A DNA stretch of 53,900 nucleotides from a virus (IMGVR_UViG_3300030107_003563:1-53900), one strand, 5' to 3'; shown: positions 575 to 41,887, counted from the first letter of the stretch. Numbers and translations: made by a program. The notes: generated by a model from the sequence alone, not told the origin.

Positions 575-1133
575 TTTCTAATAATAAGTTTTGTTCTTGA
601 ACTACTGTTAGTTGATATTTAGATTTTATAGCATCAACCTCTCCTCCTGCGGCTACATATTCAATAGCTTTTTTCATTTGTGCTTCAGTTATCTTAGGTT
701 TAGCCGCTTGTTTGATTTTATTAACTACATTGGATTTTTTACCATGATCATTAGTAGCATCCGCGTCTTCAGTGTCATCAATTAAAAATAGATTACCCAA
801 CGCATATTTCTTACCATAAGAAGATGCGGCTCCAAATTGTTGAGCGGTTTGCATACCTTTTTGATTAAGGTCTACACCTACTATAGCGGTCGCGTGTATA
901 GCATTTTCGCCATCTGATATTGTTGCTGTTGATTTAATTGTTGGAACAGGGTCGTGTGCTATCATGTCCTCTTTAAGAGTAACCGTGACGCCTTGCTCCA
1001 TTAAGAAAGGCTTTGTAGCCTCTAAGATGTCTTCTGCTTTACGGAAATAGTATTTTCCAAAGCTATTATATGAAGACTTTTTTGCTTTTAGCTTAGTCTG
1101 AATGACTGCTAGTTTTTGGTTTAATTCTTTCAT
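537..1133 (-). CDS. erf: ERF-family single-strand annealing protein
   Basis: KSSYNSFGKYYFRKAEDI and GAASSYGKKYALGNLFLIDDTEDAD match ERF motifs. Confidence 0.85.
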   Translation of the reverse strand: MKELNQKLAVIQTKLKAKKSSYNSFGKYYFRKAEDILEATKPFLMEQGVTVTLKEDMIAHDPVPTIKSTATISDGENAIHATAIVGVDLNQKGMQTAQQFGAASSYGKKYALGNLFLIDDTEDADATNDHGKKSNVVNKIKQAAKPKITEAQMKKAIEYVAAGGEVDAIKSKYQLTVVQEQNLLLENEKRKDTTEVKK

Positions 1134-7133: not shown

Positions 7134-7478
7134 TTAGTCCATTTCATCACAGTTCATACAGTCATACATCTCTGACCTTGTAGTTCTTTCATCTATTCTG
7201 TAACGAAACAAGTCTGCCACTAAATTGTCATTTTCTGACTTTAGAGCTAATAATTCTTTAACATAATATATACCATTTTGTTGAGTAATTCTACCATAAT
7301 ACATATCCATTCTAATAGCACTTATAATATCGTCTATTTTTATATCTATCATATGGAATTTTGATATATTATTCTTGTAATTCACATCATTTATTGAGTC
7401 AACACATATTTGATTACATTGACTATAACCTACTCCTGCAATTAACAGTGCTGCTACACTTAATTTAATTTTCTTCAT
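7134..7478 (-). CDS. Hypothetical exported protein
   Basis: N-terminal signal-peptide-like MKKIKLSVAALLIAGVGYSQ. Confidence 0.6.
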   Translation of the reverse strand: MKKIKLSVAALLIAGVGYSQCNQICVDSINDVNYKNNISKFHMIDIKIDDIISAIRMDMYYGRITQQNGIYYVKELLALKSENDNLVADLFRYRIDERTTRSEMYDCMNCDEMD

Positions 7479-7614
7479 TTAATTTGTTTTTATGTTTAGT
7501 TTTTCTGTTGTATTTTTTCTTATTAACAAACGTCGAGGAGCCTGGTGGTCTCACACCTTGCTCGAGTTCTACTCGCCTTTTGACTCCTCGTTTCTGTTTG
7601 TTATTTAATTTCAT
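7465..7614 (-). CDS. Small basic protein with ArfA/BrfA-like C-terminal motif (49 aa)
   Basis: Hand translation MKLNNKQKRGVKRRVELEQGVRPPGSSTFVNKKKYNRKTKHKNKLNEEN; TAATG overlap with upstream gene. Confidence 0.55.
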   Translation of the reverse strand: MKLNNKQKRGVKRRVELEQGVRPPGSSTFVNKKKYNRKTKHKNKLNEEN

Positions 7615-7859
7615 TAATCTAGTGATGGTTCTATTCCGTTTTTTTCATCTATTTCTATACAGTTTGCTATTGCGTTTGCTAATAAATCTTGTGATTCTTG
7701 ACTATTAAACCAATCTTCTTTCTCCCATACATAGTAAATCCAATCATTTGCTTCACTCGCTGTCTCAAAGTAATTGTCGTAAGTATTACCATAACTATCA
7801 GTTACTTTTGCATGATACCAAGTATTATTATCTTTTCTTGTTATACTAAAATCTCTCAT
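7614..7859 (-). CDS. Hypothetical protein
   Basis: 81-aa acidic/aromatic ORF in array. Confidence 0.65.
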   Translation of the reverse strand: MRDFSITRKDNNTWYHAKVTDSYGNTYDNYFETASEANDWIYYVWEKEDWFNSQESQDLLANAIANCIEIDEKNGIEPSLD

Positions 7860-7861
7860 AT

Positions 7862-7975
7862 TTACTTTATTGTTAAAGTTATTAATTCAAATTCATCATT
7901 AGTAATCAATCCACTCATCAAAGCTAAGTATTCTGTACTAATATCTCTACCTGTTATTTTATTTATTATAGTCAT
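7862..7975 (-). CDS. Small hypothetical protein (37 aa)
   Basis: MTIINKITGRDISTEYLALMSGLITNDEFELITLTIK; stop 2 nt before next ATG. Confidence 0.5.
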   Translation of the reverse strand: MTIINKITGRDISTEYLALMSGLITNDEFELITLTIK

Positions 7976-8008
7976 AATTTCTATATTTTATTAGTTATAC
8001 ATTTTATT

Positions 8009-8051
8009 TAGTTGTAGTGTGAGAATCGAACTCACATTAACCATTACTACA
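8009..8051 (-). ncRNA. tRNA-like minihelix (acceptor stem plus T arm, no anticodon arm)
   Basis: TGTAGT-AATGGTTAAT-GTGAG-TTCGATT-CTCAC-ACTACA-ACTA. Confidence 0.55.
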
Positions 8052-8160
8052 TGTTACTCATTCGCATTTTTTATAACTCGCTAAACAAGTGGAACTACGA
8101 GTCTGCCCACTACACGCTAATCAGCACTTCACGTGTAGTTACTACTGGCAAGTTTTTATA

Positions 8161-8403
8161 CTACTCAGTAATTTGTAAGTCACGACAGAAAGCTGGTATT
8201 GCATTACTGTTTGTATATGACTTGTACTTTGCAAAACAATTCATTGCTTCAAATCTTTCTTTATGAGTATTATATACTTCATCATGATTATATGATACAT
8301 TTTCTTGTTTTTTGTTTACAAAAGTTATAATTGTATTTTTACCAATTAGACTTTTTCTAATTACAAATCTTTTAGTTGTTAAAGTGTTAGTTAATTTTGA
8401 CAT
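8161..8403 (-). CDS. Hypothetical protein, first gene of early arm
   Basis: Directly downstream of two tandem class-A motifs. Confidence 0.7.
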   Translation of the reverse strand: MSKLTNTLTTKRFVIRKSLIGKNTIITFVNKKQENVSYNHDEVYNTHKERFEAMNCFAKYKSYTNSNAIPAFCRDLQITE

Positions 8404-8449
8404 AGTTAATTTATTTTAGTTATTATTAATTTATTTTGTTTACATTTAT

Positions 8450-8480
8450 ATTATCCAATTTGTCTCGTATTTAGTTTGTA
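8450..8480 (-). promoter_or_regulatory. Class-A promoter-like motif
   Basis: Consensus copy; plus strand attatcc-aatttgtct-cgtatttagtttgta. Confidence 0.7.
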
Positions 8481-8589
8481 AAAGTATATTGTTTGTTTAT
8501 TATATAATTTACTATTGTATGTATTGCCGCGACTTTCTTATTGTATAATTTAATTTATTTAGTTGTTGTTATTTATTTGTTACATATAT

Positions 8590-8620
8590 ATTATCCAAAT
8601 GCTATCGTATTTAGTTTGTA
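8590..8620 (-). promoter_or_regulatory. Class-A promoter-like motif
   Basis: Consensus copy 140 bp from previous; plus strand attatcc-aaatgctat-cgtatttagtttgta. Confidence 0.7.
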
Positions 8621-8751
8621 GAAAAAAGCTAAAATGTTTTAATACAAATGAATTTTGAATTATATAATATAAATAAAATAAATATAAAAAATATACAATT
8701 TTAAATGAAAAACGAAGGCGAGGCGGCAAAAATGAATTGAGTTTTAAGCTA

Positions 8752-8777
8752 GGGGGGCGGGGGCCTATAGGAGGGGG
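8752..8777 (+). other. G-tract island at the strand switch
   Basis: GGGGGGCGGGGGCCTATAGGAGGGGG within very AT-rich intergenic DNA. Confidence 0.5.
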
Positions 8778-8816
8778 CTACATTTTACCCCAATATATAC
8801 AATGTACCCTTTTATA

Positions 8817-8861
8817 TGACATTAGCCTATTAATAATACCTAGTAACTAGCTAGTGTCACA
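8817..8861. promoter_or_regulatory. Long-spacer inverted repeat, copy 2 (TGACATTAGC...GCTAGTGTCA)
   Basis: Shares 16 bp with 2682-2697 and the distal TGTCACA. Confidence 0.6.
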
Positions 8862-8865
8862 CTTT

Positions 8866-8893
8866 TAAATAAACGAGTATATAAGTAACTATA
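8866..8893 (+). promoter_or_regulatory. Class-B promoter-like motif TAAAT-N14-GTAACTATA
   Basis: 5 nt upstream of first plus-strand ATG. Confidence 0.6.
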
Positions 8894-8898
8894 ATTAT

Positions 8899-9345
8899 AT
8901 GAACAAACTACTAATTACAATTCTACTATGCTTTAACTATGTTAGTGCTCAAACATTATGCGATTCTCTATCTTTTAGTATTGCCACAAGCTCAGCGCTT
9001 ACAGTTATAGGTACAAACATTTCTTCAGATAGTACCAACTTTATGTGGGGTGTTTGTGATAACAGTATGTGTTACTCTTCAAGTGGCGATACTGCATATT
9101 TCCTTTTAGTTAACCCACTCGACACGGTAAAAGTTTGCTATGACATATCTCCACAATGGTCGTGTACCGAGTGTTATTATGTTATGTTTAATGGTTTCAC
9201 GTGGCAATTGCTTAATACAATTACACATGTTAACGATTTAAAACCACAAGTAAATAATAGTAAAATATATGACTTATTAGGAAGAGAGTTAAAAAGTATA
9301 CCTAAAGGCAAGTTATATATTAGAAATGGCAAACTATATAAATAG
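8899..9345 (+). CDS. Secreted protein with T9SS C-terminal-domain-like tail
   Basis: Signal peptide MNKLLITILLCFNYVSAQ; C-terminal KIYDLLGREL...KGKLYIRNGKLYK. Confidence 0.65.
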   Translation: MNKLLITILLCFNYVSAQTLCDSLSFSIATSSALTVIGTNISSDSTNFMWGVCDNSMCYSSSGDTAYFLLVNPLDTVKVCYDISPQWSCTECYYVMFNGFTWQLLNTITHVNDLKPQVNNSKIYDLLGRELKSIPKGKLYIRNGKLYK

Positions 9346-9347
9346 TG

Positions 9348-9375
9348 TAAATTATAAATTAATTGTGTGATAATA
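9348..9375 (+). promoter_or_regulatory. Class-B promoter-like motif TAAAT-N14-GTGATAATA
   Basis: 5 nt upstream of ATG 9381. Confidence 0.6.
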
Positions 9376-9380
9376 GAGTT

Positions 9381-9647
9381 ATGAGTAAATTTAAACTAAA
9401 GGGGCCATCGCTTTATCCAAATATAATAAGATCTTCTTCTGGATATCGGATTAATTCCGATGCATACAATGAAAGTTGTTTAATTGTACCTGATAACAAA
9501 ATCAGCATGAAAGAAGAAAATGGCGATCCTTTAGAAAAAGGTAAGATAAAAGGTACTGGTTTAACAACTGGAACAACAATAATAATGGAACCTGGTAAAG
9601 AATACGAATTTCCTGGAGATGAGGAAGTATTAGAAGAACCAGTATAA
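9381..9647 (+). CDS. Hypothetical protein with variant leader (MSKFKLKGP)
   Basis: ATG 9381 preferred over TTG 9363; ISMK...MEPGKEYEFPG..V.EEP domain. Confidence 0.7.
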   Translation: MSKFKLKGPSLYPNIIRSSSGYRINSDAYNESCLIVPDNKISMKEENGDPLEKGKIKGTGLTTGTTIIMEPGKEYEFPGDEEVLEEPV

Positions 9648-9660
9648 AAAAAATAGTAAT

Positions 9661-10029
9661 ATGGCATTTAAAATGAAAGGTTTTCCATTTGCAGGAAAAT
9701 CACCAATAAAAGATATAACAAGAAATCCTTCGTACCCAGGTTCTCATAATGAGGCTCATCAATTATTTGACGAAGGAAAAGGTCCAGATCCACACGCAGA
9801 AACTAAGCCTCTTAAACAAAAAGAAGAAAAAAGCTTTACAGACAACGAAGAATCTTACATGGATAAAGTTTACGCAGAAGTAAGTAAAATGATGGGAGAT
9901 AGTGGTGGCTATGATATTGGAGAAATAGTAGCTATGTCTGAAAAAGAAAGAATAGGTAATATAGACGGTTATGAATCAGGAGATTTTGCTAAAATGGTAG
10001 CAAAAGCTAAAAAGAAAGTTAAAAGATAA
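9661..10029 (+). CDS. MAFKM-leader protein 1
   Basis: MAFKMKGFPFAGKSPIKD. Confidence 0.8.
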   Translation: MAFKMKGFPFAGKSPIKDITRNPSYPGSHNEAHQLFDEGKGPDPHAETKPLKQKEEKSFTDNEESYMDKVYAEVSKMMGDSGGYDIGEIVAMSEKERIGNIDGYESGDFAKMVAKAKKKVKR

Positions 10030-10035
10030 ATAAAC

Positions 10036-10293
10036 ATGGCGTTTAAGATGAAAGTACCTTTTCTTATCACCTATAAAATGAAAGGTGGCATCCTATGTGA
10101 TGCTCATGGTAAACCTGTTGGGCCCACAAATCCTAATAGGTGTAACCCATACGATCATCCTCCAGGTCCAGATAATCCATGTACTAAAAAAAATAAAGAT
10201 CCAAAATTAGCTGCAATAGGCGGTGAAACTAGTTGGCGAAATAAAGGAGGTCTTTTCGCGTATAAAAAGAAAAGATCTTGCGGTTGTAAATAA
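10036..10293 (+). CDS. MAFKM-leader protein 2 (Cys/Pro-rich)
   Basis: MAFKMKVPFLITYKMKGG. Confidence 0.75.
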   Translation: MAFKMKVPFLITYKMKGGILCDAHGKPVGPTNPNRCNPYDHPPGPDNPCTKKNKDPKLAAIGGETSWRNKGGLFAYKKKRSCGCK

Positions 10294-10307
10294 AAAATAA
10301 ATAAACT

Positions 10308-10838
10308 ATGGCATTTAAAATGAAAGGATTCCCAATGCACAATACATCTGCATTGAAAAACTATAAAAACCCACAAGACTACAAAGTATTTAACATGGGT
10401 AATAAACCATCACCATTTGAGCAAACAGATGGTGATCTAAGAGAGTGGTTATTAGGTGAAAAGGGGTTTAGCCAAGAAGAAGCTGACCAAATGATTACAT
10501 CTGGAGCTTATACTACTTCTAATGAAGATTTCTTAGCGTGGTATAATAAAAGAGGAGAAACTCAAGATTTAGCAGAAGAACGTGTAGATGCCCCAGTAGA
10601 AGATCCTCCAGTAGAAGGTTCTGCAATGAACTATAAATCTCCAATGGCGAATAGAGTAACAAGTGATGTAACCAAACTACCAGTTAATCATGAACATAAG
10701 GATAAAGATGGTAACGTTATAGAAACTCATACTTATGCGCAACCTAAATATTATGAAGGCACCAAAAGGATCAGACCAGGAGGAGTTGATAAAGTGGGAA
10801 CAATAACACCAGCTCCAAAGATGAAAAAGAAAAAATAG
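10308..10838 (+). CDS. MAFKM-leader protein 3
   Basis: MAFKMKGFPMHNTSALKN...PSPFEQ...SAMNYKSPMAN. Confidence 0.8.
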   Translation: MAFKMKGFPMHNTSALKNYKNPQDYKVFNMGNKPSPFEQTDGDLREWLLGEKGFSQEEADQMITSGAYTTSNEDFLAWYNKRGETQDLAEERVDAPVEDPPVEGSAMNYKSPMANRVTSDVTKLPVNHEHKDKDGNVIETHTYAQPKYYEGTKRIRPGGVDKVGTITPAPKMKKKK

Positions 10839-10884
10839 GGAAAGTCCCTAAACCAAGTCAATATTAACCAAAAAAACCAAAAAA

Positions 10885-11178
10885 ATGACTTATTTATACT
10901 ACAAGACTAGTACATTAACTAGCAACACAAAACCAAATGAGAAAACTATTAACCAATGGGAGCATTTAGCCAGTAAGAAAAACTGGAGAATTACGCAATT
11001 ACCTAATGGATTTTACCAAACAGAGGTAAATGATCCAGAAAATGACAAAAATTGGCATGACGTAACGCGTAGAGAGACCATAGAAGGCGCAGAAGCTGCA
11101 ATTGACGGCAGTGTTGAACATTTCTCAAAGAAATTAGAGGCTACAAAAGGCCCAAAAGTAATAAAAACGTTCGAATAG
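10885..11178 (+). CDS. Hypothetical protein
   Basis: 97-aa ORF with A-rich leader, upstream of groEL. Confidence 0.75.
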   Translation: MTYLYYKTSTLTSNTKPNEKTINQWEHLASKKNWRITQLPNGFYQTEVNDPENDKNWHDVTRRETIEGAEAAIDGSVEHFSKKLEATKGPKVIKTFE

Positions 11179-11206
11179 AGCACAATTTAATTAAATTTAA
11201 TCAAAT

Positions 11207-12772
11207 ATGGAATACAATCAGCCTAGCGAGATTGTCAAAGATGTAAATTTTGGCGATATTGCTAAAAACAAAGTAATTGCTGGTGTAGAAAAGCTAGCAA
11301 AAGCAGTAAAATCAACCTTAGGAGCATCTGGAAAGTGCGTAATTTACGAAGACGCCAGAGGTCTCCCGGTCATAACAAAAGATGGAGTAACAGTAGCAGA
11401 ATCTGTAGTCTTATTTGACCCGGTTGAAAATATGGGTGCTACCCTTATTAAAGAAGCTGCAAGAAATACAGTAAGAGAAGCAGGTGACGGTACTACTACA
11501 GCTACCGTCCTTGCTGAATCTTTGATAAAAGAAGTTAGTAAGTGTAAAGCTAATACAAGAGAAATAAAAGACGGGATTAAATCTGGTCTTACAAAAGTAA
11601 ATGATTACCTTAATAAGATTTCTGTCAAGATCGAGGGCGATATGCTGAAATCTGTTAGTTCAATTAGTTGTAATAATGATGAAGAGCTAGGAAAGATTAT
11701 AGCAGAAGCTTATACTAAAGTAGGTAAAGATGGTGTGGTGTTAATGGAGGAGTCTCCAACAGAAGAAACGTATGTTGAAGTCGTAGATGGTGTACAGATA
11801 GACTCAGGACTCACATCTCCACATTTTGTTACCGATAAAGACAAGCAAATTTGTGAGCTTGATAATCCTTTAGTATTAATCGTTTCTTCAGAAATCCCAA
11901 ATATAAGAAGAATACAAAAAATATTAGAGTATGTTATTAAGAATAAGAGATCATTATTAATTGTAGCACCAGTTGACCAGCAAGTTAAAGCTGCTCTTCT
12001 TATGAATAAGGTAAAAGGTAACATTAAAGTTAACATCGTTGACTTACCAGGCTTTGGTCCTACTAAAGAAGATACAGTTGCTGATTTAGCATTCTTGGTT
12101 GGAGCTAAAGTAATTAATGAGCAATTAGGTGATGATCTTGATTTAATCGATATAGATTGTTTAGGTGAAGCATACACTTCTATAACTGACGATAAAAACA
12201 CTGTTCTTACTATAGATACTCCAGAAGATCAAATGGAGGAGAGAATTAAAAGTATTAAGAAAACTATAGATAAGTGGGATAAAAATCCATTTATACAAAA
12301 GAAACATAAAGAAAGATTAGCTATGCTATCTGGATCAGTAGGAATGGTAAAAGTAGGTGCTGATTCTAAAGTTGAACTTAAAGAAAAGAAAGATAGAATA
12401 GAAGATGCTATCTACGCCACAAAAGCAGCTTTGAAAGAAGGTATTGTACCAGGAGGAGGTGTAGCGCTATTAAACGCTTCTCAAAAAATTTCGACCGACT
12501 GCGTCGGTGAAGAGATACTTTCCAAGGCTATTCAAGCTCCTTTCTACACTGTATTAGAAAACGCGGGTATTACCTACCCAGATTACGATGGTGTAGATGG
12601 TGAAGGTGTTGATGTTGTTACTGGAGAAAAAGTTGATATGATTAAAGCTGGTATCATTGATCCAGTGCTTGTAACTAAGTCAGCATTAAAAAACGCTGTA
12701 AGTGTAGTTTCAACAATTATATCTGCAGATTGTGTAATTTCAAATATGAGAATGAATGAAAGCGATCAATAG
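11207..12772 (+). CDS. groEL: Phage chaperonin GroEL
   Basis: ITKDGVTVA, AGDGTTTATVLA, EGIVPGGGVAL, GIIDPVLV; no C-terminal GGM tail. Confidence 0.97.
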   Translation: MEYNQPSEIVKDVNFGDIAKNKVIAGVEKLAKAVKSTLGASGKCVIYEDARGLPVITKDGVTVAESVVLFDPVENMGATLIKEAARNTVREAGDGTTTATVLAESLIKEVSKCKANTREIKDGIKSGLTKVNDYLNKISVKIEGDMLKSVSSISCNNDEELGKIIAEAYTKVGKDGVVLMEESPTEETYVEVVDGVQIDSGLTSPHFVTDKDKQICELDNPLVLIVSSEIPNIRRIQKILEYVIKNKRSLLIVAPVDQQVKAALLMNKVKGNIKVNIVDLPGFGPTKEDTVADLAFLVGAKVINEQLGDDLDLIDIDCLGEAYTSITDDKNTVLTIDTPEDQMEERIKSIKKTIDKWDKNPFIQKKHKERLAMLSGSVGMVKVGADSKVELKEKKDRIEDAIYATKAALKEGIVPGGGVALLNASQKISTDCVGEEILSKAIQAPFYTVLENAGITYPDYDGVDGEGVDVVTGEKVDMIKAGIIDPVLVTKSALKNAVSVVSTIISADCVISNMRMNESDQ

Positions 12773-13013
12773 ATATATAATAGTAGACAAGATAAAAACA
12801 GGGCCTAAAAAGGTTGCTGGTCTTATAATGACAGATGATACCGATGTTGACAATAGGTATTTAAAAGCAAAAATAATATCGTGTGGTAATTTAGTTGAAG
12901 GATTAAAAGATGGAGATACGATATATTACGATAAACATGCTGGACACGACATATCATGGAAAGATACTCTTTATAGAGTTATTCGTGATGGTGACGTTGT
13001 TCTAGTAGATTAA
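12756..13013 (+). CDS. groES: Co-chaperonin GroES
   Basis: MKAINRYIIV...AGLIM...GLKDGDTIYYDKHAG...IRDGDVV; overlaps groEL end. Confidence 0.88.
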   Translation: MKAINRYIIVDKIKTGPKKVAGLIMTDDTDVDNRYLKAKIISCGNLVEGLKDGDTIYYDKHAGHDISWKDTLYRVIRDGDVVLVD

Positions 13014-13083
13014 GCCTAAACCACAACCCTTAAACCTTAAACTTAAAAACGAAAACAAATTATTAATTAAAAACAAAAAAATT

Positions 13084-13398
13084 ATGAACAGAAGTGATGA
13101 AGTTTATTGTTTTGCTCAGGTTGCAGATAACGACTCTTGTGGCTTTCCTTTATCTAGATTAAGATCTATAAACGGAGGGACAGGGGAACTTATTCTAGCT
13201 ATTGATGAGCCATCAGGAAACGTTGATGCTATTACACTAACAACTGGAGCAGATGAGCTTACTGCAGCAATGCAATTATGTAGAGCTTTAAGTGAAGCTA
13301 CTAGAAACACACAATCAAACGTTGTAGTATTAGCTAACTTAGCTGCTGCCACGGTAACTGTTATTCCAGAAATTACTGGTTGCAGTACTATAGCCTAA
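13084..13398 (+). CDS. Hypothetical protein, paralog of next gene
   Basis: Shares FPLS/YPVS, DAITL/DILTI and DELTAA/DEFQAM with 13424-13708. Confidence 0.7.
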   Translation: MNRSDEVYCFAQVADNDSCGFPLSRLRSINGGTGELILAIDEPSGNVDAITLTTGADELTAAMQLCRALSEATRNTQSNVVVLANLAAATVTVIPEITGCSTIA

Positions 13399-13423
13399 TT
13401 ATTAACATTATAAAATAAAAAAA

Positions 13424-13708
13424 ATGATAGAGAAATTTTTAGTCATGCAAACTGCAGCAAACGATGTTATGGTATACCCTGTATCTAAAATGAAAGGTAT
13501 GGAAGGTAAAGATGGTACTGTTGACATTAGTTTTGACACGGTTGGAGCTGACGACATATTAACAATAAATACAAGTGATGAGTTTCAAGCAATGCAAGAT
13601 ATTGCTGAAGCTATAGGTGGTAACAAAGATGGTGCTATCTTACTTGGTGATGATGTAGCTGGTACTTATATTAGTACTAGTATCACATCTATCGGTGATT
13701 CAGCATAA
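13424..13708 (+). CDS. Hypothetical protein, paralog of previous gene
   Basis: Shares the same three motifs with 13084-13398. Confidence 0.7.
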   Translation: MIEKFLVMQTAANDVMVYPVSKMKGMEGKDGTVDISFDTVGADDILTINTSDEFQAMQDIAEAIGGNKDGAILLGDDVAGTYISTSITSIGDSA

Positions 13709-13713
13709 TCTGA

Positions 13714-14154
13714 ATGCGATTAACCGCGCAGGATCTGCGTGAAATGAATATCCTTAAGTATTACAGGCTCACTAGAAAGTGGGTCTGTAAAACTTACGGG
13801 TTAAAAGATGCAGATTTAGAATTATTAATTTATTTAGATTGTAAAGGAAGATTTACACGACAAGACTTTATAGACGGTGTTTATACATATTCGTGGGATA
13901 AAGCAAGATGGGACAGATTAAGAAACGAAGGTTGGATTGATGTATGGAGACATAGAAATAGAACAACTATAATGTATTCAGTTTTTAAAACCTCGTGGAA
14001 ATGTTCTCAAATGATAAGTAGGATATATCGTATCCTATTAGGCGAGGAAGACTTGCCCACTTCAGAAAGAAGTGTATTTTATAAGAATAAATCATATACA
14101 GATAAAGTTTACAATAAAGCTATAGATGATATGATTAAAGATAAAGATAGATAA
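13714..14154 (+). CDS. Hypothetical protein, possibly winged-helix DNA-binding
   Basis: YGLKDADLELLIYLD...RLRNEGWIDVWR pattern resembles MarR-like wHTH. Confidence 0.55.
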   Translation: MRLTAQDLREMNILKYYRLTRKWVCKTYGLKDADLELLIYLDCKGRFTRQDFIDGVYTYSWDKARWDRLRNEGWIDVWRHRNRTTIMYSVFKTSWKCSQMISRIYRILLGEEDLPTSERSVFYKNKSYTDKVYNKAIDDMIKDKDR

Positions 14155-14155
14155 T

Positions 14156-14362
14156 ATGGCATTCAAAATGAGAGGTTTTAGTCCCTTTACACAAAAAGTC
14201 GATCCAGATGCACCTGGTACTCCAGGAGAACCTGGATATGAACCACCGGTTAAACGTGAAGATTTAGACGAAATGGGTAAAAAGATTTGGGATTGTCACA
14301 GAAATCCAACAACTAGATGGAATAACAAGACTAAAAAGTGTGAACCAATAAAAAAAGATTAA
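14156..14362 (+). CDS. MAFKM-leader protein 4
   Basis: MAFKMRGFSPFTQ; C-terminal C-x7-WN-x5-C module. Confidence 0.75.
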   Translation: MAFKMRGFSPFTQKVDPDAPGTPGEPGYEPPVKREDLDEMGKKIWDCHRNPTTRWNNKTKKCEPIKKD

Positions 14363-14363
14363 C

Positions 14364-14780
14364 ATGGCTTTTAAAATGAAAGGTAGTCCTATGTATAGAA
14401 ACTTTGGTATTAGCTCTCCTATTCAACAAAAACGTTGTTTGGAGGGTTTTAAAGGTAGCTGTAGGTTAAACTTATGGGACAGAATAAAAAGTAATAGAGG
14501 TTGGAAAAAATTCAAATACAATTTAAAAGAAGGATTTAAAGATATTGGAGAGGGATTAAGAGATGCTGGAGATTGGACTGGTATAACAGACTTTGATAAA
14601 GATGGACGCTGGTGGCAAAGTAATGACGATCAAACTTCTTGGGGTAGTGGTAGAGATCTTAGACACAAACCTATAAATAGAGGTAAAGGTAAAGAAGAAG
14701 AGTATATAACGCTAGAAGATGATATTTGGCAGCAGCAGTTTGAGCAAGACGAATCGGGAGGTGAACAAAGATTATCATAA
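14364..14780 (+). CDS. MAFKM-leader protein 5
   Basis: MAFKMKGSPMYRNFGISSPIQQ. Confidence 0.8.
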   Translation: MAFKMKGSPMYRNFGISSPIQQKRCLEGFKGSCRLNLWDRIKSNRGWKKFKYNLKEGFKDIGEGLRDAGDWTGITDFDKDGRWWQSNDDQTSWGSGRDLRHKPINRGKGKEEEYITLEDDIWQQQFEQDESGGEQRLS

Positions 14781-14792
14781 ATAATAAAAGAT

Positions 14793-15014
14793 ATGGCATT
14801 TAAAATGAAAGGGTGGTCCCCACTTAACCAAAAAAAAATATGGAAAGAAGGTGAAGATTACGTAGATAAAGATGGGAACTATTGGAGTTGGGATACTTTT
14901 ACAAACAAACATAATAAAATAGATATCGATTTAAGAGGCGTTCCGGCTAAAGATTGGAAGAAAGAAATAAGAAAACAAGATCCTGATTTTAAATTTCCTA
15001 ACGAAGATAAATAA
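14793..15014 (+). CDS. MAFKM-leader protein 6
   Basis: MAFKMKGWSPLNQ. Confidence 0.75.
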   Translation: MAFKMKGWSPLNQKKIWKEGEDYVDKDGNYWSWDTFTNKHNKIDIDLRGVPAKDWKKEIRKQDPDFKFPNEDK

Positions 15015-15015
15015 T

Positions 15016-15423
15016 ATGGCATTCAAAATGAAACGCACTAAAGCAACTTTTCCTTTTAAAGGAGAAGGTCATGACTTCTTACATAAAGGAGATTATAAAA
15101 TAGTACGTAAAGATTTAGACGAAGGTGTACTTGGAGAGGCTGAAAATGGTAAAACTATCAATATAGATGTAAGTATACCTAAAGGTAGTAAAAAAGAAAA
15201 AGAAGTTGTTACACATGAAATACATCATCAAGAGGAAATGAACAATGGTGATTTATCATATGATGATGATAGTGTAGAAGATAAAATAGCAAATAAAACA
15301 TATACAAGAGAAAACGGTAATTTAATAGATGATGAAACCGGAGAGGTTTACGAAGAAGGAGATGATAGTTTACCGCATGAGCAAAGAGCATACAAAGCTA
15401 GTAATAAAATAAAAAACGCATAA
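15016..15423 (+). CDS. MAFKM-leader protein 7, zincin-like metallopeptidase
   Basis: GVLGEA...INID...THEIHH (HExxH) plus downstream LPHEQRAY. Confidence 0.7.
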   Translation: MAFKMKRTKATFPFKGEGHDFLHKGDYKIVRKDLDEGVLGEAENGKTINIDVSIPKGSKKEKEVVTHEIHHQEEMNNGDLSYDDDSVEDKIANKTYTRENGNLIDDETGEVYEEGDDSLPHEQRAYKASNKIKNA

Positions 15424-15424
15424 T

Positions 15425-16045
15425 ATGGCATTCAAAATGAACAGGCCCTTAAAAATGGCTGGAACAAGAAAATCAACAATAAACAGATACGGTAGAAAAA
15501 CAAAGCCAGCTATGGAGATGGAAAGCGGTTTATACTACAATAGTGCCATGGGCCCTATGAAAATGCACTCACCATCTGCATTAAAGCAAATGGAAGAAGG
15601 TATGGGTGATATGGGTGGTATGGAAGCAATGATGGGTATGATGGGTGGAGCTCCAGAAGGAGGAGGTGCACCTGCTGATACAACAGCAGCTCCAGCTGAA
15701 AAAACAGAAAAGAAACAAGAATCTTGGAGTTTTGACGAAACTGATCTTCAAGGTGGTGATATGGGAGAAGTTAAAACAGATGAGGCTACTGGACAACTTT
15801 ACGTTATTGTAGAAAACGAAGACGAGTTAATCGCAGGCTTAGGACAAGATATTAAAGTTATAATACCCCCAAACATTGCAAAGCAGGCCAACGCTAAACC
15901 TGGTGAATTACTTACTGGTGGTGATTATCAAGTTCAGTTAAACCCTGAAACTAACGAGTACGAAATACAAACTATGAACGACGAAAGCCAAGGAGAAGCT
16001 ATTGAGAAAATAGAACAAGGCGAAGGAGGAGAAAGCGATTACTAA
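15425..16045 (+). CDS. MAFKM-leader protein 8 (Met/Gly-rich linker, acidic C-terminal domain)
   Basis: MAFKMNRPLKM...SPSALKQ...GMGDMGGMEAMMGMMGG. Confidence 0.8.
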   Translation: MAFKMNRPLKMAGTRKSTINRYGRKTKPAMEMESGLYYNSAMGPMKMHSPSALKQMEEGMGDMGGMEAMMGMMGGAPEGGGAPADTTAAPAEKTEKKQESWSFDETDLQGGDMGEVKTDEATGQLYVIVENEDELIAGLGQDIKVIIPPNIAKQANAKPGELLTGGDYQVQLNPETNEYEIQTMNDESQGEAIEKIEQGEGGESDY

Positions 16046-16251
16046 TGGGTTGGTTTAAAGTAATGGGTGGCGTGACCACCCCGTTTTTACAAAAGAAACC
16101 TGTTTTTGATGAAAGTAAAGGTTGGAAAAAAGGTGAGGCTTATACGACTAAAAGCGGGGTAAAAGGTCATTATGTTTTCGATCCTAAAGGTAAAAAATAT
16201 TTTATGACTAGTGATGGTAAACTACACACTGGTCAAATAGACGATTTATAA
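16045..16251 (+). CDS. Variant-leader small protein
   Basis: MGWFKVMGGVTTPFLQK. Confidence 0.7.
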   Translation: MGWFKVMGGVTTPFLQKKPVFDESKGWKKGEAYTTKSGVKGHYVFDPKGKKYFMTSDGKLHTGQIDDL

Positions 16252-16252
16252 T

Positions 16253-16480
16253 ATGGGACTATTTAAATTTATAGGTGGTGTTGCTACACCATTTTTGCAA
16301 AAATCATACTGGTTTAAAAAAGATGGTAAAAATATAACGCAAAAAGAATATTGTGAATGGCAAGGTAAAATAGGGCCAGATGTACCACCTTCTTTTAATC
16401 TACAGACAAACCATCCAGATGCTTGTGGTTTAAAGGCTAAAAGAGAAAAAGCAAGAAAAGAAAACGATAAAAAGAAATAA
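16253..16480 (+). CDS. Variant-leader small protein
   Basis: MGLFKFIGGVATPFLQK. Confidence 0.7.
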   Translation: MGLFKFIGGVATPFLQKSYWFKKDGKNITQKEYCEWQGKIGPDVPPSFNLQTNHPDACGLKAKREKARKENDKKK

Positions 16481-16867
16481 ATGTTAGATAAATTATTTAC
16501 AGGTGGTGCAGCTGACCTAGTTAAAAGCGTGGGCGGTGTTATAGATGGTTTACACACTTCTGACGAAGAAAAACTAGCTGCAGAACAAAAAGTAAAAGAA
16601 TTAATCGCTCAATACGAAATAGAGATGGAGAAGAACATCACTGCTCGTTGGCAAGCGGATTTAAAATCAGACTCATGGCTTAGTAAAAATGTTAGGCCTA
16701 TGGTTTTAATATTTTTAATAATATGTACAATGTTATTAATATTTATTGACGCCGGCGCTATAAACTTCGATGTTAAAGATACATGGGTAGATTTATTACA
16801 ATTAGTATTAATAACAGTGATTGGCGCTTATTTTGGCGGTAGATCATTTGAAAAAGTAAAAAAATAA
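16481..16867 (+). CDS. Holin (3TM / GTA-holin-like)
   Basis: RWQADLKSDSWLSKNVRP, two TM segments, AYFGGRSFEK. Confidence 0.8.
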   Translation: MLDKLFTGGAADLVKSVGGVIDGLHTSDEEKLAAEQKVKELIAQYEIEMEKNITARWQADLKSDSWLSKNVRPMVLIFLIICTMLLIFIDAGAINFDVKDTWVDLLQLVLITVIGAYFGGRSFEKVKK

Positions 16868-16871
16868 AATT

Positions 16872-17207
16872 ATGGGAATAAATTCAACAGAAGTAGCTTA
16901 CAGTTTTGGTCAATTAGGTAGCGGTTTTAGTGACGAGGCTGTTGAGGTAACTCCTCCAGCTGGAAAGGTTATAGTGGCTATTCAATTTTTAGAAGACACA
17001 GTGCTTTCTACTTTAGTAGCGGCTACAGACACACCTGACACAGCTTACTTTAGTCATACAACAGCTGTAGCTAACAATGGTGGCGGTGCTGCAGAAACAG
17101 ACGCTGCAACAAGTTTTCCAAAGGGTTTGACTATATATGGAAGATGGGCTAGTTTTACTCCTCCTACTTCAACAGCTGGTGGCGTAATCTTTTATTTTGG
17201 ATACTAA
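16872..17207 (+). CDS. Hypothetical protein, probably virion-associated
   Basis: Beta-rich, FPKGLTIYGRW motif. Confidence 0.6.
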   Translation: MGINSTEVAYSFGQLGSGFSDEAVEVTPPAGKVIVAIQFLEDTVLSTLVAATDTPDTAYFSHTTAVANNGGGAAETDAATSFPKGLTIYGRWASFTPPTSTAGGVIFYFGY

Positions 17208-17983
17208 TGTTAGGATTAGGACATAATATAGCTACACCAATGGTAAGTGGGGAAACCCCATATTCAAACGATTATTATTACACAGGAACTCATGCTACCG
17301 CTACGTTTGTTAATACAAATTCTGCTATGCAATCGTTATTTAGAGATAGCTGGACGTTTTCTGGTTGGTTTAATTTTGATGACGGACAAACCAATCCTCC
17401 AAACGGTATATTTGGAGCTAAGCATGATAGTAACAATCAAGTTATATGTACTACTACTAAAAACGCTTCTGCAATAAATGTATCTTTTGTGGCTAATGGA
17501 GACACACATCTCACTGTGCTTGATGCAAACTCTTGGGGAAATGGGGCTACTGGTTGGCAGCATGTGGCTGTAACCTGCAATAAGGGGGCTAGTGCTGTTA
17601 CAATTACTATTTATGTAAATGGAAGTGCCCCAGCTCAAACATCAAACCCCTTAGTAAATCCAACTAACATGGCCGCTTTTACAAACACCCAAAGTATATA
17701 CATTGGTGCAATATATACTGGTAGTGTTATGGAAAGTCTTCGAGGTGATATGGATGATGTAGCTTTTCATTCTAAAGCTTTATCATCAAGTGAGGTTTCT
17801 GAAATTTATAACGGAGGAGTATCAGTTGATTTAACAAAAATTTCCACTTCTGGCGATCTTGTACATTATTATACGTTTAACAGTCAAAACGGTGATGATA
17901 GTGGTAGTGGGGAATCAGACGCTACTTTTGCTGAAGAAGGCCACTCTTTTAACGCACATTCAACACCAACCTCAGCACCATAA
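17207..17983 (+). CDS. LamG/concanavalin-A-like lectin-domain virion protein
   Basis: WTFSGWF, WQHVAVT, IYVNG, GDMDDVAFHSKALSSSEVSEIYN. Confidence 0.8.
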   Translation: MLGLGHNIATPMVSGETPYSNDYYYTGTHATATFVNTNSAMQSLFRDSWTFSGWFNFDDGQTNPPNGIFGAKHDSNNQVICTTTKNASAINVSFVANGDTHLTVLDANSWGNGATGWQHVAVTCNKGASAVTITIYVNGSAPAQTSNPLVNPTNMAAFTNTQSIYIGAIYTGSVMESLRGDMDDVAFHSKALSSSEVSEIYNGGVSVDLTKISTSGDLVHYYTFNSQNGDDSGSGESDATFAEEGHSFNAHSTPTSAP

Positions 17984-18018
17984 CATAATAAATAAATAAT
18001 TAACTTAAATTAAATAAA

Positions 18019-18297
18019 ATGGCAAAAAAAGAAAAAATAGTAGACTTAAAGTCTAAACCTAAAAAAATAACTAAAAAAGAACTAGAAGAAGTTCAAGATG
18101 TTGTTAACGATATGAATAGAGCACAAATAGAAGTTGGCTCTATAGAATCTAGAAAACTACAACTATTATTTAGAATAGATGGTTATAAAGAAAAATTAAA
18201 TTTAATGCAAAAGTCTTTCGGTGATAAATATGGAACGTTTGATATAAACATCTCCGATGGTACTATAAACTATCCAGAAAATGGCAAAGCTAATTAG
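18019..18297 (+). CDS. Hypothetical coiled-coil protein
   Basis: 92 aa; KYGTFDINISDGTI C-terminus. Confidence 0.7.
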   Translation: MAKKEKIVDLKSKPKKITKKELEEVQDVVNDMNRAQIEVGSIESRKLQLLFRIDGYKEKLNLMQKSFGDKYGTFDINISDGTINYPENGKAN

Positions 18298-18502
18298 AAA
18301 AATAAGTATTGGTAAAGATTATAAAAACGATGCTATGCACTACGCAGTTGGTCAAGAGGTTTATGGTGGTCATACTATTTGTGATATATTAGAAGAAGAA
18401 GATAAATACTCTGTATATATTAAAAAGAAAAAAGATGTACTACCTTGGAAAGACTTTAATAAAAACATGGCGGTATCCGTAGAATATAATTTAGAATACT
18501 AA
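18281..18502 (+). CDS. Hypothetical protein
   Basis: 73-aa ORF overlapping both neighbours. Confidence 0.7.
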   Translation: MAKLIRKISIGKDYKNDAMHYAVGQEVYGGHTICDILEEEDKYSVYIKKKKDVLPWKDFNKNMAVSVEYNLEY

Positions 18503-19083
18503 TGAAAAGTGTTTACAACTTTGTTGTAACACCAAAAGGAGGAAGATATAATAACACTAAAAAGGTTGGCGATTCAGAACTAATTATTAACACCGAAATA
18601 TATAATCATCAATTTGTAAATAGAGAAGCAGTTGTTGTTTCAACCCCGATTGTTGGTAGTACAAGCATAAAACCAGGAGATACAGTAATAGTACATCACA
18701 ATGTTTTTCGTAGATGGCACAATGTAAAAAGTATTGAAAAAAATAGTAGAAGTTACTTTAATGAAAATACTTACCTTATAAATCACGATCAAATTTTTTT
18801 ATACAAAAGAGATAAAGAATGGGTAGCTCCTAAAGGTTATTGTTTTATAAAACCTTTAAAAGCTATAGATCAGTTTAATATTGAGTCTGAAAAACCTTTG
18901 CAGGGCATTGTTAAATACTCAGATGGCACTGTAGATGTTAATGATTTAATTGGTTTTAGACCAAAAAGTGAATATGAGTTTATAGTTGACGGCGAAAGAC
19001 TATATAGAGTTTTATCTAATTTTATTACAATTAAATATGAATATCAAGGAAACGAAGAAGAATATAATCCTAGCTGGGCGTAA
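18502..19083 (+). CDS. GroES-like protein (apparently two tandem domains)
   Basis: EAVVVSTP...IKPGDTVIVHH and GIVKY...VNDLIGF...EYEFIVDGERLYRV. Confidence 0.55.
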   Translation: MKSVYNFVVTPKGGRYNNTKKVGDSELIINTEIYNHQFVNREAVVVSTPIVGSTSIKPGDTVIVHHNVFRRWHNVKSIEKNSRSYFNENTYLINHDQIFLYKRDKEWVAPKGYCFIKPLKAIDQFNIESEKPLQGIVKYSDGTVDVNDLIGFRPKSEYEFIVDGERLYRVLSNFITIKYEYQGNEEEYNPSWA

Positions 19084-19315
19084 AGCAGTTAACGAGTTGA
19101 TTAAAGTTGCTGAAGAAAAGATTATTACAAACACAGAAGATGATGTCTCGGCTGATAGATTAAAAAACGCTGCAGCTACAAAAAAATTAGCTATATTTGA
19201 CGCATTTGAAATACTTAACAGAATCCAAGAAGAGGAGAACTTGCTTGAGGGCAAAACACCTGAAGAGACAAAGAAAGAAGTCTTTAGAGGATTCGCAGAA
19301 GGCAGATCTAAGTAA
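19037..19315 (+). CDS. Putative terminase small subunit
   Basis: Helical 92-aa protein (ATG 19037) overlapping terL start by TAATG; call is positional. Confidence 0.5.
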   Translation: MNIKETKKNIILAGRKAVNELIKVAEEKIITNTEDDVSADRLKNAAATKKLAIFDAFEILNRIQEEENLLEGKTPEETKKEVFRGFAEGRSK

Positions 19316-21528
19316 TGTACGAGCAAAATTTAGTTAAAACAATAGAACCTATTAAACGCACGACTATAAGTCGGCTTAACAAATCTAAAAAATGGAAATA
19401 TGGATATGATAAAGAACACGATATCGTGGTTATCTCTAAAACTGGAAAAATTGGTGAAGTGGTTGAAATTCAAAACTTGCGAATTGGCTTGCCGTTGGAA
19501 CCAAAAAGAGTGTATATGCATCCCAAAAACAAATGGGAAAAAATAGAGTATCCAAAAGAATTAAATAGATTAAAAAATATATTTGATTGGAGAGCATACC
19601 CTGAAGAGCAAAAAGATCAGTGGTATGAGTATATAGACGAAGAGTTTAAGAGAAGAGAAGAAGGGTTTTGGTTTATGAACAATAGTAAGCCAACTTATAT
19701 AACAGGTACACATTATATGTATCTTCAATGGAGCAAGATAGATGTAGGCGCTCCAGATTTTAGAGAAGCAAATAGACTGTTTTATATCTTTTGGGAGGCA
19801 TGTAAAGCTGACAAAAGATGTTATGGTATGTGTTACCTAAAGAACAGAAGATCAGGATTTTCGTTTATGTCATCTGCAGAAACAGTTAACTTAGCCACAC
19901 TTGCAAGTGATAGTAGATACGGTATACTATCTAAAACAGGTTCTGATGCTAAGAAAATGTTTACAGACAAAGTCGTACCGATTAGTATAAACTATCCTTT
20001 TTTCTTTAAACCTATACAGGACGGTATGGATCGTCCAAAATCAGAGCTTGCCTATAGAGTTCCTGCTAGTAAGTTTACAAGAAAGAAAATTACTTCAAAC
20101 GAACAACTTGAAGATTTGCAAGGGTTAGATACGACTATAGATTGGAAAAATACTGGTGACAATAGTTATGACGGTGAAAAACTTAACTTACTAGTACATG
20201 ATGAAAGTGGTAAGTGGGAAAGACCTGATAATATATTAAACAATTGGAGAGTTACAAAAACATGTTTGAGATTAGGTAGTAAGATAGTTGGTAAGTGTAT
20301 GATGGGTAGTACATCTAACGCTTTAGATAAAGGGGGTGATAACTTTAAAAAATTATACAATGCATCAGATGTCACTAAAAGAAATAGAAATGGTCAAACA
20401 AAATCTGGTTTATATTCTTTGTTTATCCCAATGGAATGGAACTACGAAGGATTTATTGACGAGTATGGAGTTCCAGTATTCACTACTCCTGACACAGACG
20501 TGTTTGCCCCAGATGGCGAACTAATAGATATAGGCGTAGTAGATAGTTGGCAAAATGAAGTTGATGGTTTAAAAGGAGATCATGATGCTTTAAACGAGTT
20601 TTACAGACAGTTTCCAAGAACTGAAGAACACGCGTTTAGAGATGAAGCTTTAAATAGTATATTTAATTTAGTAAAAATATACGAACAAATAGATTATAAT
20701 GATGGAATAGGAAATGATGCTGTAGTATCTACAGGTAATTTTCAATGGGTAAATGGAGTTAAGGATACACAAGTTATATTTTATCCAGATCCAAAAGGTA
20801 GATTTAAGGTAAGTTGGGTGCCACCGTCTCATTTGCAAAATAAAATTATAGCAAAGAATGGAGTTAAATATCCTGGTAATGAGCACATAGGTGCTTTTGG
20901 TTGTGACTCATATGATATATCAGGAACAGTGGACGGTAGAGGATCTAATGGAGCGCTACACGGTTTAACTAAATTTTCAATGGAAGAAGCGCCTTCTAGT
21001 TCTTTTTTCTTAGAATATATAGCTAGACCACAAACCGCTGAGATGTTTTTTGAAGATGTGTTGATGGCATTAGTGTTTTACGGCATGCCAATACTTGCGG
21101 AAAACAATAAACCTAGACTTTTATACTATCTTAGAAGAAGAGGTTATAGAGGCTACTCAATGAACAGACCAGATAAAACATGGAAAAAATTATCTATAGC
21201 AGAAAAAGAAATAGGTGGTATACCAAACTCTAGTGAAGATATAAAACAAGCCCACGCTGCTGCTATAGAAATGTACATACAAGATAGAGTGGGTTTACAG
21301 TCTAACGGTAACTACGGCACGATGTATTTTAACCGCACGTTAAACGATTGGGCTAAATTTGATATAAACAAGAGAACAAAATTTGATGCCGCGATTAGCT
21401 CTGGTTTAGCCATAATGGCATGTAATAGACATTTGTACGCGCCAAATGCTAGGATTGAAAGACAAAAACTAAATATAAGCATAGCCAGATATAAAAACGA
21501 CGGCAATGTATCTAAAATAATTAAATAG
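19315..21528 (+). CDS. terL: Terminase large subunit
   Basis: LKNRRSGFS (Walker A-like), LLVHDESGK (Walker B), GSTSN, FGCDSYD nuclease Asp, ENNK. Confidence 0.9.
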   Translation: MYEQNLVKTIEPIKRTTISRLNKSKKWKYGYDKEHDIVVISKTGKIGEVVEIQNLRIGLPLEPKRVYMHPKNKWEKIEYPKELNRLKNIFDWRAYPEEQKDQWYEYIDEEFKRREEGFWFMNNSKPTYITGTHYMYLQWSKIDVGAPDFREANRLFYIFWEACKADKRCYGMCYLKNRRSGFSFMSSAETVNLATLASDSRYGILSKTGSDAKKMFTDKVVPISINYPFFFKPIQDGMDRPKSELAYRVPASKFTRKKITSNEQLEDLQGLDTTIDWKNTGDNSYDGEKLNLLVHDESGKWERPDNILNNWRVTKTCLRLGSKIVGKCMMGSTSNALDKGGDNFKKLYNASDVTKRNRNGQTKSGLYSLFIPMEWNYEGFIDEYGVPVFTTPDTDVFAPDGELIDIGVVDSWQNEVDGLKGDHDALNEFYRQFPRTEEHAFRDEALNSIFNLVKIYEQIDYNDGIGNDAVVSTGNFQWVNGVKDTQVIFYPDPKGRFKVSWVPPSHLQNKIIAKNGVKYPGNEHIGAFGCDSYDISGTVDGRGSNGALHGLTKFSMEEAPSSSFFLEYIARPQTAEMFFEDVLMALVFYGMPILAENNKPRLLYYLRRRGYRGYSMNRPDKTWKKLSIAEKEIGGIPNSSEDIKQAHAAAIEMYIQDRVGLQSNGNYGTMYFNRTLNDWAKFDINKRTKFDAAISSGLAIMACNRHLYAPNARIERQKLNISIARYKNDGNVSKIIK

Positions 21529-41879: not shown

Positions 41880-41887
41880 AATATAAT

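Follow-up and report, generated by a model that had tools for sequence, protein, structure and literature searches.

To our knowledge, there is one described case in which diverse proteins share nothing but a short N-terminal propeptide that sorts them into the prohead, namely that of bacteriophage T4. In the available parts of two reports (PMC9026906, PMC3012670), an N-terminal targeting propeptide of 10–19 residues, which is cut off by the head protease, is the only common part of the T4 internal proteins; the protease may itself be targeted by a propeptide, and the internal proteins differ among relatives. Among small HExxH peptidases, Wss1 and Spartan have been termed minigluzincins (available part of PMC4559962), and DUF4157/eCIS_core domains are found N-terminal to toxins, with loading, release or maturation as proposed roles (excerpts of PMC8213781). 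Here we describe a short N-terminal peptide, referred to as the tag, which recurs at the start of otherwise different small proteins encoded by a marine podophage of Flavobacteriia. The DNA analysed is a stretch of 53,900 nucleotides (IMGVR_UViG_3300030107_003563:1-53900), called the window throughout, and the tagged open reading frames (ORFs) are named after their first nucleotide.

The locus resembles the T4 capsid targeting sequence (IPI, IPII, IPIII and Alt; gp21) in that a short N-terminal peptide is borne by otherwise diverse proteins and in that the tagged gene set differs between close relatives (37 gene orders in 63 loci). However, no sequence relation between the two was found. Whereas packaging and cleavage have been demonstrated for T4, the present system is known from sequence alone; it belongs to a Flavobacteriia podophage rather than a T4-like myophage, comprises 9–11 tagged genes per window instead of a handful, and is accompanied by a candidate zincin of 100–145 amino acids (aa) in place of a serine prohead protease. 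A serine protease of the gp21 type was not found in the structural block of the window by Pfam and PHROG searches. With the minigluzincins (selecase MJ1213; Wss1/SprT group) the candidate zincin shares an HExxH motif on a very small scaffold, whereas its N-terminal tag is new. DUF4157/eCIS_core is likewise a small HExxH domain that is tied to diverse payloads, through a neighbouring gene or an N-terminal fusion. In contrast, the genes described here lie in the late arm of a podophage without a contractile-tail locus, and their payloads, i.e. the sequences behind the tag, are not known toxins. Precursor arrays of ribosomally synthesized and post-translationally modified peptides (RiPPs) also combine a conserved leader with a variable remainder in copies side by side, but the tag is far shorter, the payloads are far longer, and no modifying enzymes were found in the window.

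The tag in the window and its relatives

Eight plus-strand ORFs of the window (9661, 10036, 10308, 14156, 14364, 14793, 15016 and 15425) start with MAFKM[K/R/N], and three more carry variant tags (9381, 16045 and 16253). These eight ORFs and three variant starts had been noted in a preliminary description of the window, with which the ORF list, a six-frame motif scan and an inspection of the 5′ ends agree. A MAFKM start is found in 8 of the 70 window ORFs of at least 60 aa, compared with 0.0004 expected from composition. Neighbouring tagged genes are tightly packed, with 1–15 nucleotides (nt) between them, and the DNA upstream is unconserved except for A/T richness and the stop codon of the preceding gene. 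A promoter and terminator scan of positions 7400–19400 gave the same counts as in shuffles. The 11 tagged proteins are hydrophilic (grand average of hydropathy, GRAVY, −0.65 to −1.45) and range in isoelectric point (pI) from 4.4 to 9.8. No convincing Pfam or PHROG family was detected in ten of them, i.e. all except 16253, which was scanned against PHROGs only. Since the ratio of nonsynonymous to synonymous substitution rates (dN/dS) is 0.12–0.48 in seven pairs of orthologous payloads, the payload ORFs are real genes. The tagged ORFs, all in the late arm, are the following (L numbers denote related loci).

9381–9647, plus strand: tagged ORF with the variant tag MSKFKLKG; 88 aa, without Pfam or PHROG family; the ORF listing prolongs it upstream to a TTG at 9363
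9661–10029, plus strand: tagged ORF, MAFKMKGFPF..SPIK; 122 aa; ortholog in L162 with dN/dS 0.37
10036–10293, plus strand: tagged ORF, MAFKMKVPF; 85 aa; basic, pI 9.8
10308–10838, plus strand: tagged ORF, MAFKMKGFPM; 176 aa; mosaic of three shared modules
14156–14362, plus strand: tagged ORF, MAFKMRGFSPFTQK; 68 aa; absent from L016 and L162, unaligned in L089
14364–14780, plus strand: tagged ORF, MAFKMKGSPMYRNFGI; 138 aa; absent from L016 and L162, unaligned in L089
14793–15014, plus strand: tagged ORF, MAFKMKGWSPLNQKK; 73 aa; dN/dS 0.12 versus L016
15016–15423, plus strand: tagged, predicted minimal HExxH zinc metallopeptidase (mini-zincin); 135 aa; the constant member
15425–16045, plus strand: tagged ORF, MAFKMNRPLKM; 206 aa; acidic, M/G-rich
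16045–16251, plus strand: ORF with the variant tag MGWFKVMGG..TPFLQKK; 68 aa; the L162 ortholog has a different start
16253–16480, plus strand: ORF with the variant tag MGLFKFIGG..TPFLQKS; 75 aa

A degenerate DNA pattern of the tag matched at least 119 IMG/VR contigs, and a GroEL search yielded 80 loci, one of them shared with the pattern set, with a GroEL 81–92% identical to that of the window. Together, 198 related IMG/VR loci were examined, which makes 199 sources in all. Because these loci are pieces of 2–21 kb, the counts of tagged genes per genome are minima. A homolog of some window gene is present in 114 of the 119 pattern loci; therefore, the tag belongs to one clade. ORFs starting with MAFK[MLIV] occur one to eight times in 148 of the 199 sources and are lacking in 51, the window being the richest with eight. 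A looser motif retrieves 428 unique tagged proteins (424 by another count) of 40 to 561 aa. Arrays of variable number with swapped payloads, which the preliminary description had suggested looking for in related phages, were indeed encountered.

The tag core reads [A/G/P]-[F/Y]-K-[M/L]-[K/R/N]-[G/S] and lies 2 to about 20 residues from the start; it is often trailed within ~10 residues by P-[F/L/M]-x-Q or S-P-x-K, and SPx[K/R/Q] follows within 26 residues in 94 of 306 tag regions. In 824,671 ORF residues the strict motif was counted 276 times, of which 204 are at residue 3 and only four at index 40 or higher. In the 79 GroEL-found loci that had not been selected by the tag, 148 tagged ORFs were kept after filtering. 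In a scan for the position of the aromatic residue, 108 ORFs have it at position 3 and the others have it deeper, usually behind proline, as in MSRPFKMK, MTYKPFKMKG, MAGPFKMKG and MYGKKPFKMHG. In the same loci the M/L position is encoded by ATG (67), CTA (53) or TTA (12), and F/Y as well as A/G/P are swapped too. In the window, tag codons vary at synonymous sites (GCA/GCG/GCT, TTT/TTC, AAA/AAG), as reported earlier. Neither a fixed position from the start codon nor conservation of nucleotides only describes the tag, since offsets vary and replacements are conservative. These offsets, swaps and codon choices support the earlier view that the peptide is the conserved unit: the tag is a portable, clade-specific N-terminal peptide.

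Outside this clade the tag was sought in several places. No cultured phage with the tag was found, and both tag and peptidase are lacking in four cultured relatives, namely phi38:1, elemo, Panino and Manatee Spring phage. A scan of 596 Gb of bacterial and archaeal genomes found no tag arrays and gave 74 single matches, 22 of which correspond to a single stretch inside a conserved protein of bacteria; for the remaining ones, a rough estimate of the chance expectation is ~35. With single matches and no arrays in these genomes, a tag copied from a host protein was ruled out. The conserved bacterial protein, MAFKMKGRVGDSPIIGAG, contains the exact tag string in L204, L222, L224 and 19 other Bacteroidota genome loci, with 52–245 in-frame codons (mostly 209–245) open upstream of the string, and is unrelated to the phage tag. 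No paper with the string MAFKMKG was found among 8.1 million PMC papers and 0.36 million preprints, and the tag is not mentioned in the available part of a methylation proteomics paper on phi38:1 (PMC13288928).

Parts of the tag region recur elsewhere in the window. The pattern [P/G][F/L/M][L/T/N/Q]Q occurs six times in the first 25 residues of 50 window genes as compared with twice in the other 15,346 residues (Fisher p = 4e-6, for a pattern picked after viewing the data). Its bearers are the tagged ORFs 14156, 14793, 16045 and 16253 as well as two late proteins of 904 aa (39165–41879, GFLQ) and 3,701 aa (41888–52993, PFLQ). On this post hoc basis, the tag may be connected with virion proteins. 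The motif is lacking in the giant proteins of elemo and Manatee Spring phage, and no locus for the N-terminus of the 3,701-aa protein was found in the relatives. A weak likeness to the K-G-x-x-P-x-Q of the tag region is seen in the portal N-termini of the window (21534–23963) and its relatives, ..G[I/V]K[G/S][Y/N]FPSQ... A second common N-terminus, MA[Y/F][I/V/K]Q[K/S]NNP[F/I], is carried by ~17 small basic ORFs past the right end of the window (L042, L044, L048, L053, L054, L093 and L102) and by none within it; hybrids such as MAFKQINNPF and MPFKQLNNPF suggest a kinship with the main tag. The structural protein of elemo at the scaffold position (L202, 27098–28117, between portal and capsid protein) starts with MFKMK, which may be chance.

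A tagged mini-zincin as the constant member

The constant member among the tagged genes is ORF 15016–15423. Judging from its motif it encodes a very small zinc peptidase, here called mini-zincin, and thus a candidate processing enzyme that had escaped the preliminary description. In a hidden Markov model search exactly one copy was found in 135 of the 199 sources; the tag is present in 127 of these 135 mini-zincins and the HExxH motif is intact in 133. A large protein database holds 1,697 mini-zincin clusters, and the best 120 of the 1,697 all have M[AG]FKL at the start, 119 directly and one behind four extra residues.

An alignment of 52 sequences of the family revealed M1, K4, E68, H71 and E122 as invariant and F3 and H67 as nearly invariant (90% or more). 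The profile of this alignment matches selecase (MJ1213; 4qhf, 4qhj, 4qhi) with an E value of 7.7e-4 over 53 residues, a weak but specific match that takes in the HExxH helix and the strand preceding the motif. Weak matches to the Pfam families Peptidase_M91, M90, eCIS_core, DUF6782 and SprT-like were given by minorities of the 52 members, none of them at the cut-off; the best are M90 (6.2e-5) followed by M91, eCIS_core and SprT-like near 1e-3. A weak likeness to M78 was also seen. For eCIS_core (PF13699), 10 of the 52 match, with a best E value of 0.0046 and all below the cut-off. No family member reaches the curated cut-off of a Pfam peptidase, and the window copy has no Pfam match. Among PHROGs, the 52 sequences match phrog_16532 (23), phrog_10499 (17) and phrog_87, 'metallo-protease' (4, best E 1.3e-5).

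The tag is linked to the mini-zincin not only by co-occurrence but also by natural fusions. Among seven longer relatives, five consist of a peptidase part of 107–114 aa that continues in frame into another M[AG]FKL tag with its payload (P0170, P0172, P0173 and P0174, P0175), and every fusion type is conserved over its full length. A distant homolog in the Xanthomonas jumbo phage XacN1 (E 2e-6) lacks an N-terminal tag, and MAFFT aligns an internal IAYKL of this protein under the tag. This alignment hints that the tag may have been derived from the peptidase's own N-terminal segment. Because the clade has an M15 endolysin elsewhere, the mini-zincin need not be a lysin; a role as the clade's endolysin was ruled out by the M15 homolog downstream of the 53020 homolog (L044, L093).

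Payloads, cassette turnover and genome context

BLAST clustering of 279 payloads gave 102 clusters, two of which are large: the peptidase family and a set joined by short shared modules and K-rich repeats. Proteins 9661, 10308, 14793, 15016 and 15425 of the window belong to five different clusters among the clusters listed. The statement of the preliminary description that the payloads are unrelated thus holds within the window, but only partly across relatives, where short modules are shared and shuffled. ORF 10308 is a case in point. Among its 48 database homologs, 43 carry the tag, and the other five are either a variant or shorter gene models with an internal Met as start. Its C-terminal module is found directly behind a different tag type in P0139–P0141 and P0149, its NYKNPQDYKVFNMGNKP module is attached to many different tails, and its module A resembles a degenerate tag. 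Over the lengths covered by the search, no payload homolog clearly without a tag was found; the payloads are therefore not domains taken over from other sources. The ten largest payloads of relatives have no Pfam family, a PDB sequence search gave no match for 15425 and 14364, and the ESM Atlas gave no usable match for 14364. The payloads constitute a rapidly evolving superfamily in which modules are shuffled and most members are of low complexity.

The tagged gene set is hypervariable. To describe its turnover, the neighbouring features are needed.

537–1133, minus strand: Erf-like single-strand annealing protein (phrog_155, E 6e-37), a candidate for short-homology recombination
11207–13013, plus strand: GroEL (11207–12772) and GroES (12756–13013), conserved core between two cassette slots
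13714–14154, plus strand: conserved 146-aa protein, left border of the second cassette slot
16481–16867, plus strand: holin (phrog_3427, E 1.8e-28), right border of the second cassette slot
39165–52993, plus strand: 904-aa and 3,701-aa late proteins, N-termini with the second-half motif (GFLQ, PFLQ)

These coordinates confirm that two tagged clusters flank groEL/groES, as described before. Untagged relatives encode GroEL too, so this neighbourhood is not specific to the tag. The slot between the 13714–14154 gene and the holin contains 0–6 ORFs, in 37 gene orders among the 63 relatives with a GroEL 81–92% identical to the window's. In most relatives, homology to the window extends from 13714 to a few bases inside the tag at 14156 (29 loci end at 14167) and restarts only at about 16440–16500. 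Others break within the slot. In L016, the window is matched at 13856–14171 and 14791–16900, and on the L016 side the two matches share 18 nt, namely the tag; therefore, the window holds two extra genes. Similarly, the breaks of L162 at 14161 and 15022 mean that the window holds three extra genes, and L089 breaks at 14175 and 15004. The preliminary description had proposed the leader DNA as a crossover point. This view is supported insofar as three insertion/deletion differences start and end in tag DNA, so that some cassette joints do lie within the tag. On the other hand, the slots 11177–11179 and 13013–13714, which are without tags in the window, vary as well; breaks at gene borders are thus common here anyway. 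Tag-to-tag joints in contigs were not counted, as their sides are shorter than 30 nt and on a repeat.

The Erf-like protein is a plausible agent of cassette recombination. In two marine DNA runs, the contigs of at least 88% identity have a summed depth of hundreds to thousands on conserved genes versus less than 50 on cassettes, which fits shared cores with strain-specific cassettes, bearing in mind that contig depth should not be over-read. Contigs from RNA libraries cover parts of the region, which is no demonstration of transcription. In most relatives, different small ORFs stand in place of the acidic ORFs 13084–13398 and 13424–13708, and many relatives have an insert of 240–940 nt between the 10885 gene and GroEL, which contains a tagged gene where inspected (L128, L145, L150 and L155).

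With respect to the phage itself, Cellulophaga phage phi38:1, a member of Pervagoviridae, Flavobacterium phage elemo and Maribacter phage Panino are distant relatives. The capsid-like protein is 47% identical to that of the uncultured podophage MW202828, 45% to that of Panino and 39% to that of elemo, and it also matches 15 Cellulophaga phage records. DNA nearly identical to the window is present in marine metagenomes from several studies. The minus-strand arm encodes the Erf-like annealing protein, a sigma-factor-like protein, endonuclease V and DNA ligase. On the plus strand the order is tagged genes, GroEL/GroES, holin, a GroES-like protein, large terminase, portal and capsid-like virion protein, followed by more virion proteins and giant ORFs of 2,008 and 3,701 aa (29296–35322 and 41888–52993). 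The giant ORFs are without Pfam family; a sub-threshold match to a primase zinc finger lies near the C-terminus of the larger one. Tagged genes are found only on this strand, where lysis and structural genes lie as well. Further positions of tagged genes in relatives are behind the homologs of 41888 and of 53020 and, for L003 and L045, within the tail module. No conventional prohead protease family was detected in the structural block by Pfam and PHROG searches, the mini-zincin being the only peptidase-like gene found. The ORFs 8899–9345 and 53020–53898 have a hydrophobic, signal-peptide-like N-terminus. A C-terminal domain of the type IX secretion system type was suspected in ORF 8899 and rejected, as there was no Pfam match. 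Directly behind the 53020 homolog of relatives come tagged genes, small membrane proteins, tail-fibre-sized ORFs and an M15 endolysin.

Possible roles of the tag

We rank first, though only tentatively, the possibility that the tag is a sorting and processing signal in analogy to the T4 capsid targeting sequence, paired with a peptidase of its own. T4 is the one known case of such a sorting propeptide. Support is drawn from this precedent, from the peptide-level signal at the N-terminus, from the many payloads behind one tag, from the link to the peptidase (co-occurrence, single copy, its own tag, the fusions, and the lack of both in the four cultured relatives), from the position of the tagged genes among lysis and structural genes, from the failure to find a conventional prohead protease family in the structural block, and from the joints in tag DNA. 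According to this model, the tag would bind an assembly component, and the tagged proteins together with the tagged peptidase would thereby be taken up into the procapsid. Removal of the tag by the peptidase would follow, with the cut likely just in front of F/Y, as cleavage by such zincins is usually on the N-terminal side of a hydrophobic residue, and the variable cargo would exit with the DNA at the next infection. The ~20 nt of tag DNA would also serve as joints for gain, loss and swap of cassettes. The complete scheme, in which the portable tag and the self-tagged zinc peptidase of 100–145 aa form a modular system that loads and matures cargo, with swappable injected proteins and the 20 nt of the tag as joint, appears rather doubtful when taken as a whole.

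Several observations weigh against a T4-like role. Relatives with homologous capsid, portal and terminase genes do without tag or peptidase; their capsid-like protein is 39–47% identical to that of the window. As head genes are shared with such untagged relatives, any receptor of the tag would need to be clade-specific. The preliminary description had assumed variable effectors as cargo. Pfam, PHROG and PDB scans, however, recognized no known effector domain in the payloads. Two or more copies of the motif lie in the first 45 residues of 19 of the 428 tagged proteins, and nine of the 428 have at least three AMKMK-like repeats. Internal copies and the copies in fusions are more readily reconciled with a motif for binding or cleavage than with an address confined to the terminus. 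The synonymous sites of the tag are more A-rich than those of other genes (AAA 96%, TTT 95% and GCA 77%, versus 86%, 85% and 56% in codons 2–8 of 539 untagged genes), and therefore shared descent or some nucleotide constraint adds to the peptide signal. Finally, a homolog of phi38:1 gp080, which is annotated as structural, is encoded just upstream of the 10885 homolog (76–78 aa, basic, ~50–55% identity). Its 38 matches in relatives (e.g. L155 6709 and L136 8343) are untagged, and it is absent from the window. These untagged homologs and the relatives that share head genes but do without the system are among the weightiest objections.

It is conceivable, albeit on the doubtful side, that the tagged proteins are pro-proteins which act in the infected cell and are never packaged, the tag being a recognition or cleavage site at which the mini-zincin matures or releases them. 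The link between peptidase and tag and the peptidase-tag-payload fusions require cleavage only, internal motif copies exist, and the weak likeness to eCIS_core/DUF4157 would be in keeping with maturation, which is among the roles proposed for that domain in the excerpts at hand (PMC8213781). Such a scenario leaves unexplained why the peptidase itself bears the tag in 127 of 135 cases and why the tagged genes lie among lysis and structural genes. We consider it unlikely that the tag is a multivalent short linear motif on disordered, lysine-rich proteins that binds DNA, RNA or a host or phage protein with neither cleavage nor sorting, in which case the N-terminal copy would simply be the first repeat. 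The payloads are hydrophilic, often K-rich and of low complexity, with repeated AMKMKKE-like and SPxK units, and both the frequent SPx[K/R/Q] and module A of 10308, so like a degenerate tag, would suit this idea. Yet the strict motif hardly occurs beyond residue 20, only the 19 proteins mentioned have more than one copy in their N-terminal part, the pI range of the window payloads is not uniformly basic, and an enzyme-like peptidase is tagged too.

The remaining alternatives are less probable still. Trimming before F/Y would expose an aromatic and a basic residue, and an N-terminus of this kind resembles bacterial N-end-rule degrons. The invariant [F/Y]-K behind a small residue or proline might thus form a conditional degradation signal by which host proteolysis times the activity of the payloads. 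We regard this as quite improbable, since 9–11 such genes per genome would be costly to explain and the peptidase itself would be degraded. Even less credit is due to a signal at the nucleotide level, be it for translation start or re-initiation of coupled genes in a host without Shine-Dalgarno sites, or as a mere recombination site. While the A-rich synonymous sites, the abutting stop codons of preceding genes and the breakpoints in tag DNA would be in line with it, the distance to the start codon varies, non-synonymous changes are conservative, different codons are used, and the motif is kept inside fusions. A RiPP-like precursor array is scarcely credible: conserved leaders with variable tails, arrays and a nearby peptidase are reminiscent of such clusters, but a tag of only about 7–11 residues, payloads of 40–561 aa and the failure to find a modifying enzyme in the window are not.

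If the complete scheme of a modular loading and maturation system is true for this abundant clade of marine flavobacterial podophages, the system would parallel the T4 capsid targeting sequence as a second case, of independent evolutionary origin and with a different mechanism, and its small size could make it of use as a packaging handle. If proteins are directed into the virion by the tag, it would represent a second natural 'address label' for phage heads, from another virus family and with another protease class. There would also be a large natural library of cargo, with 428 unique tagged proteins from 199 sources and 1,697 peptidase clusters in public metagenomes. Should the tag instead be a peptidase recognition site or a binding motif, it would still mark a large uncharacterised protein system in abundant ocean phages. 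A role in sorting into the virion, if true, would moreover raise the question as to which molecules other than DNA are injected by marine phages.

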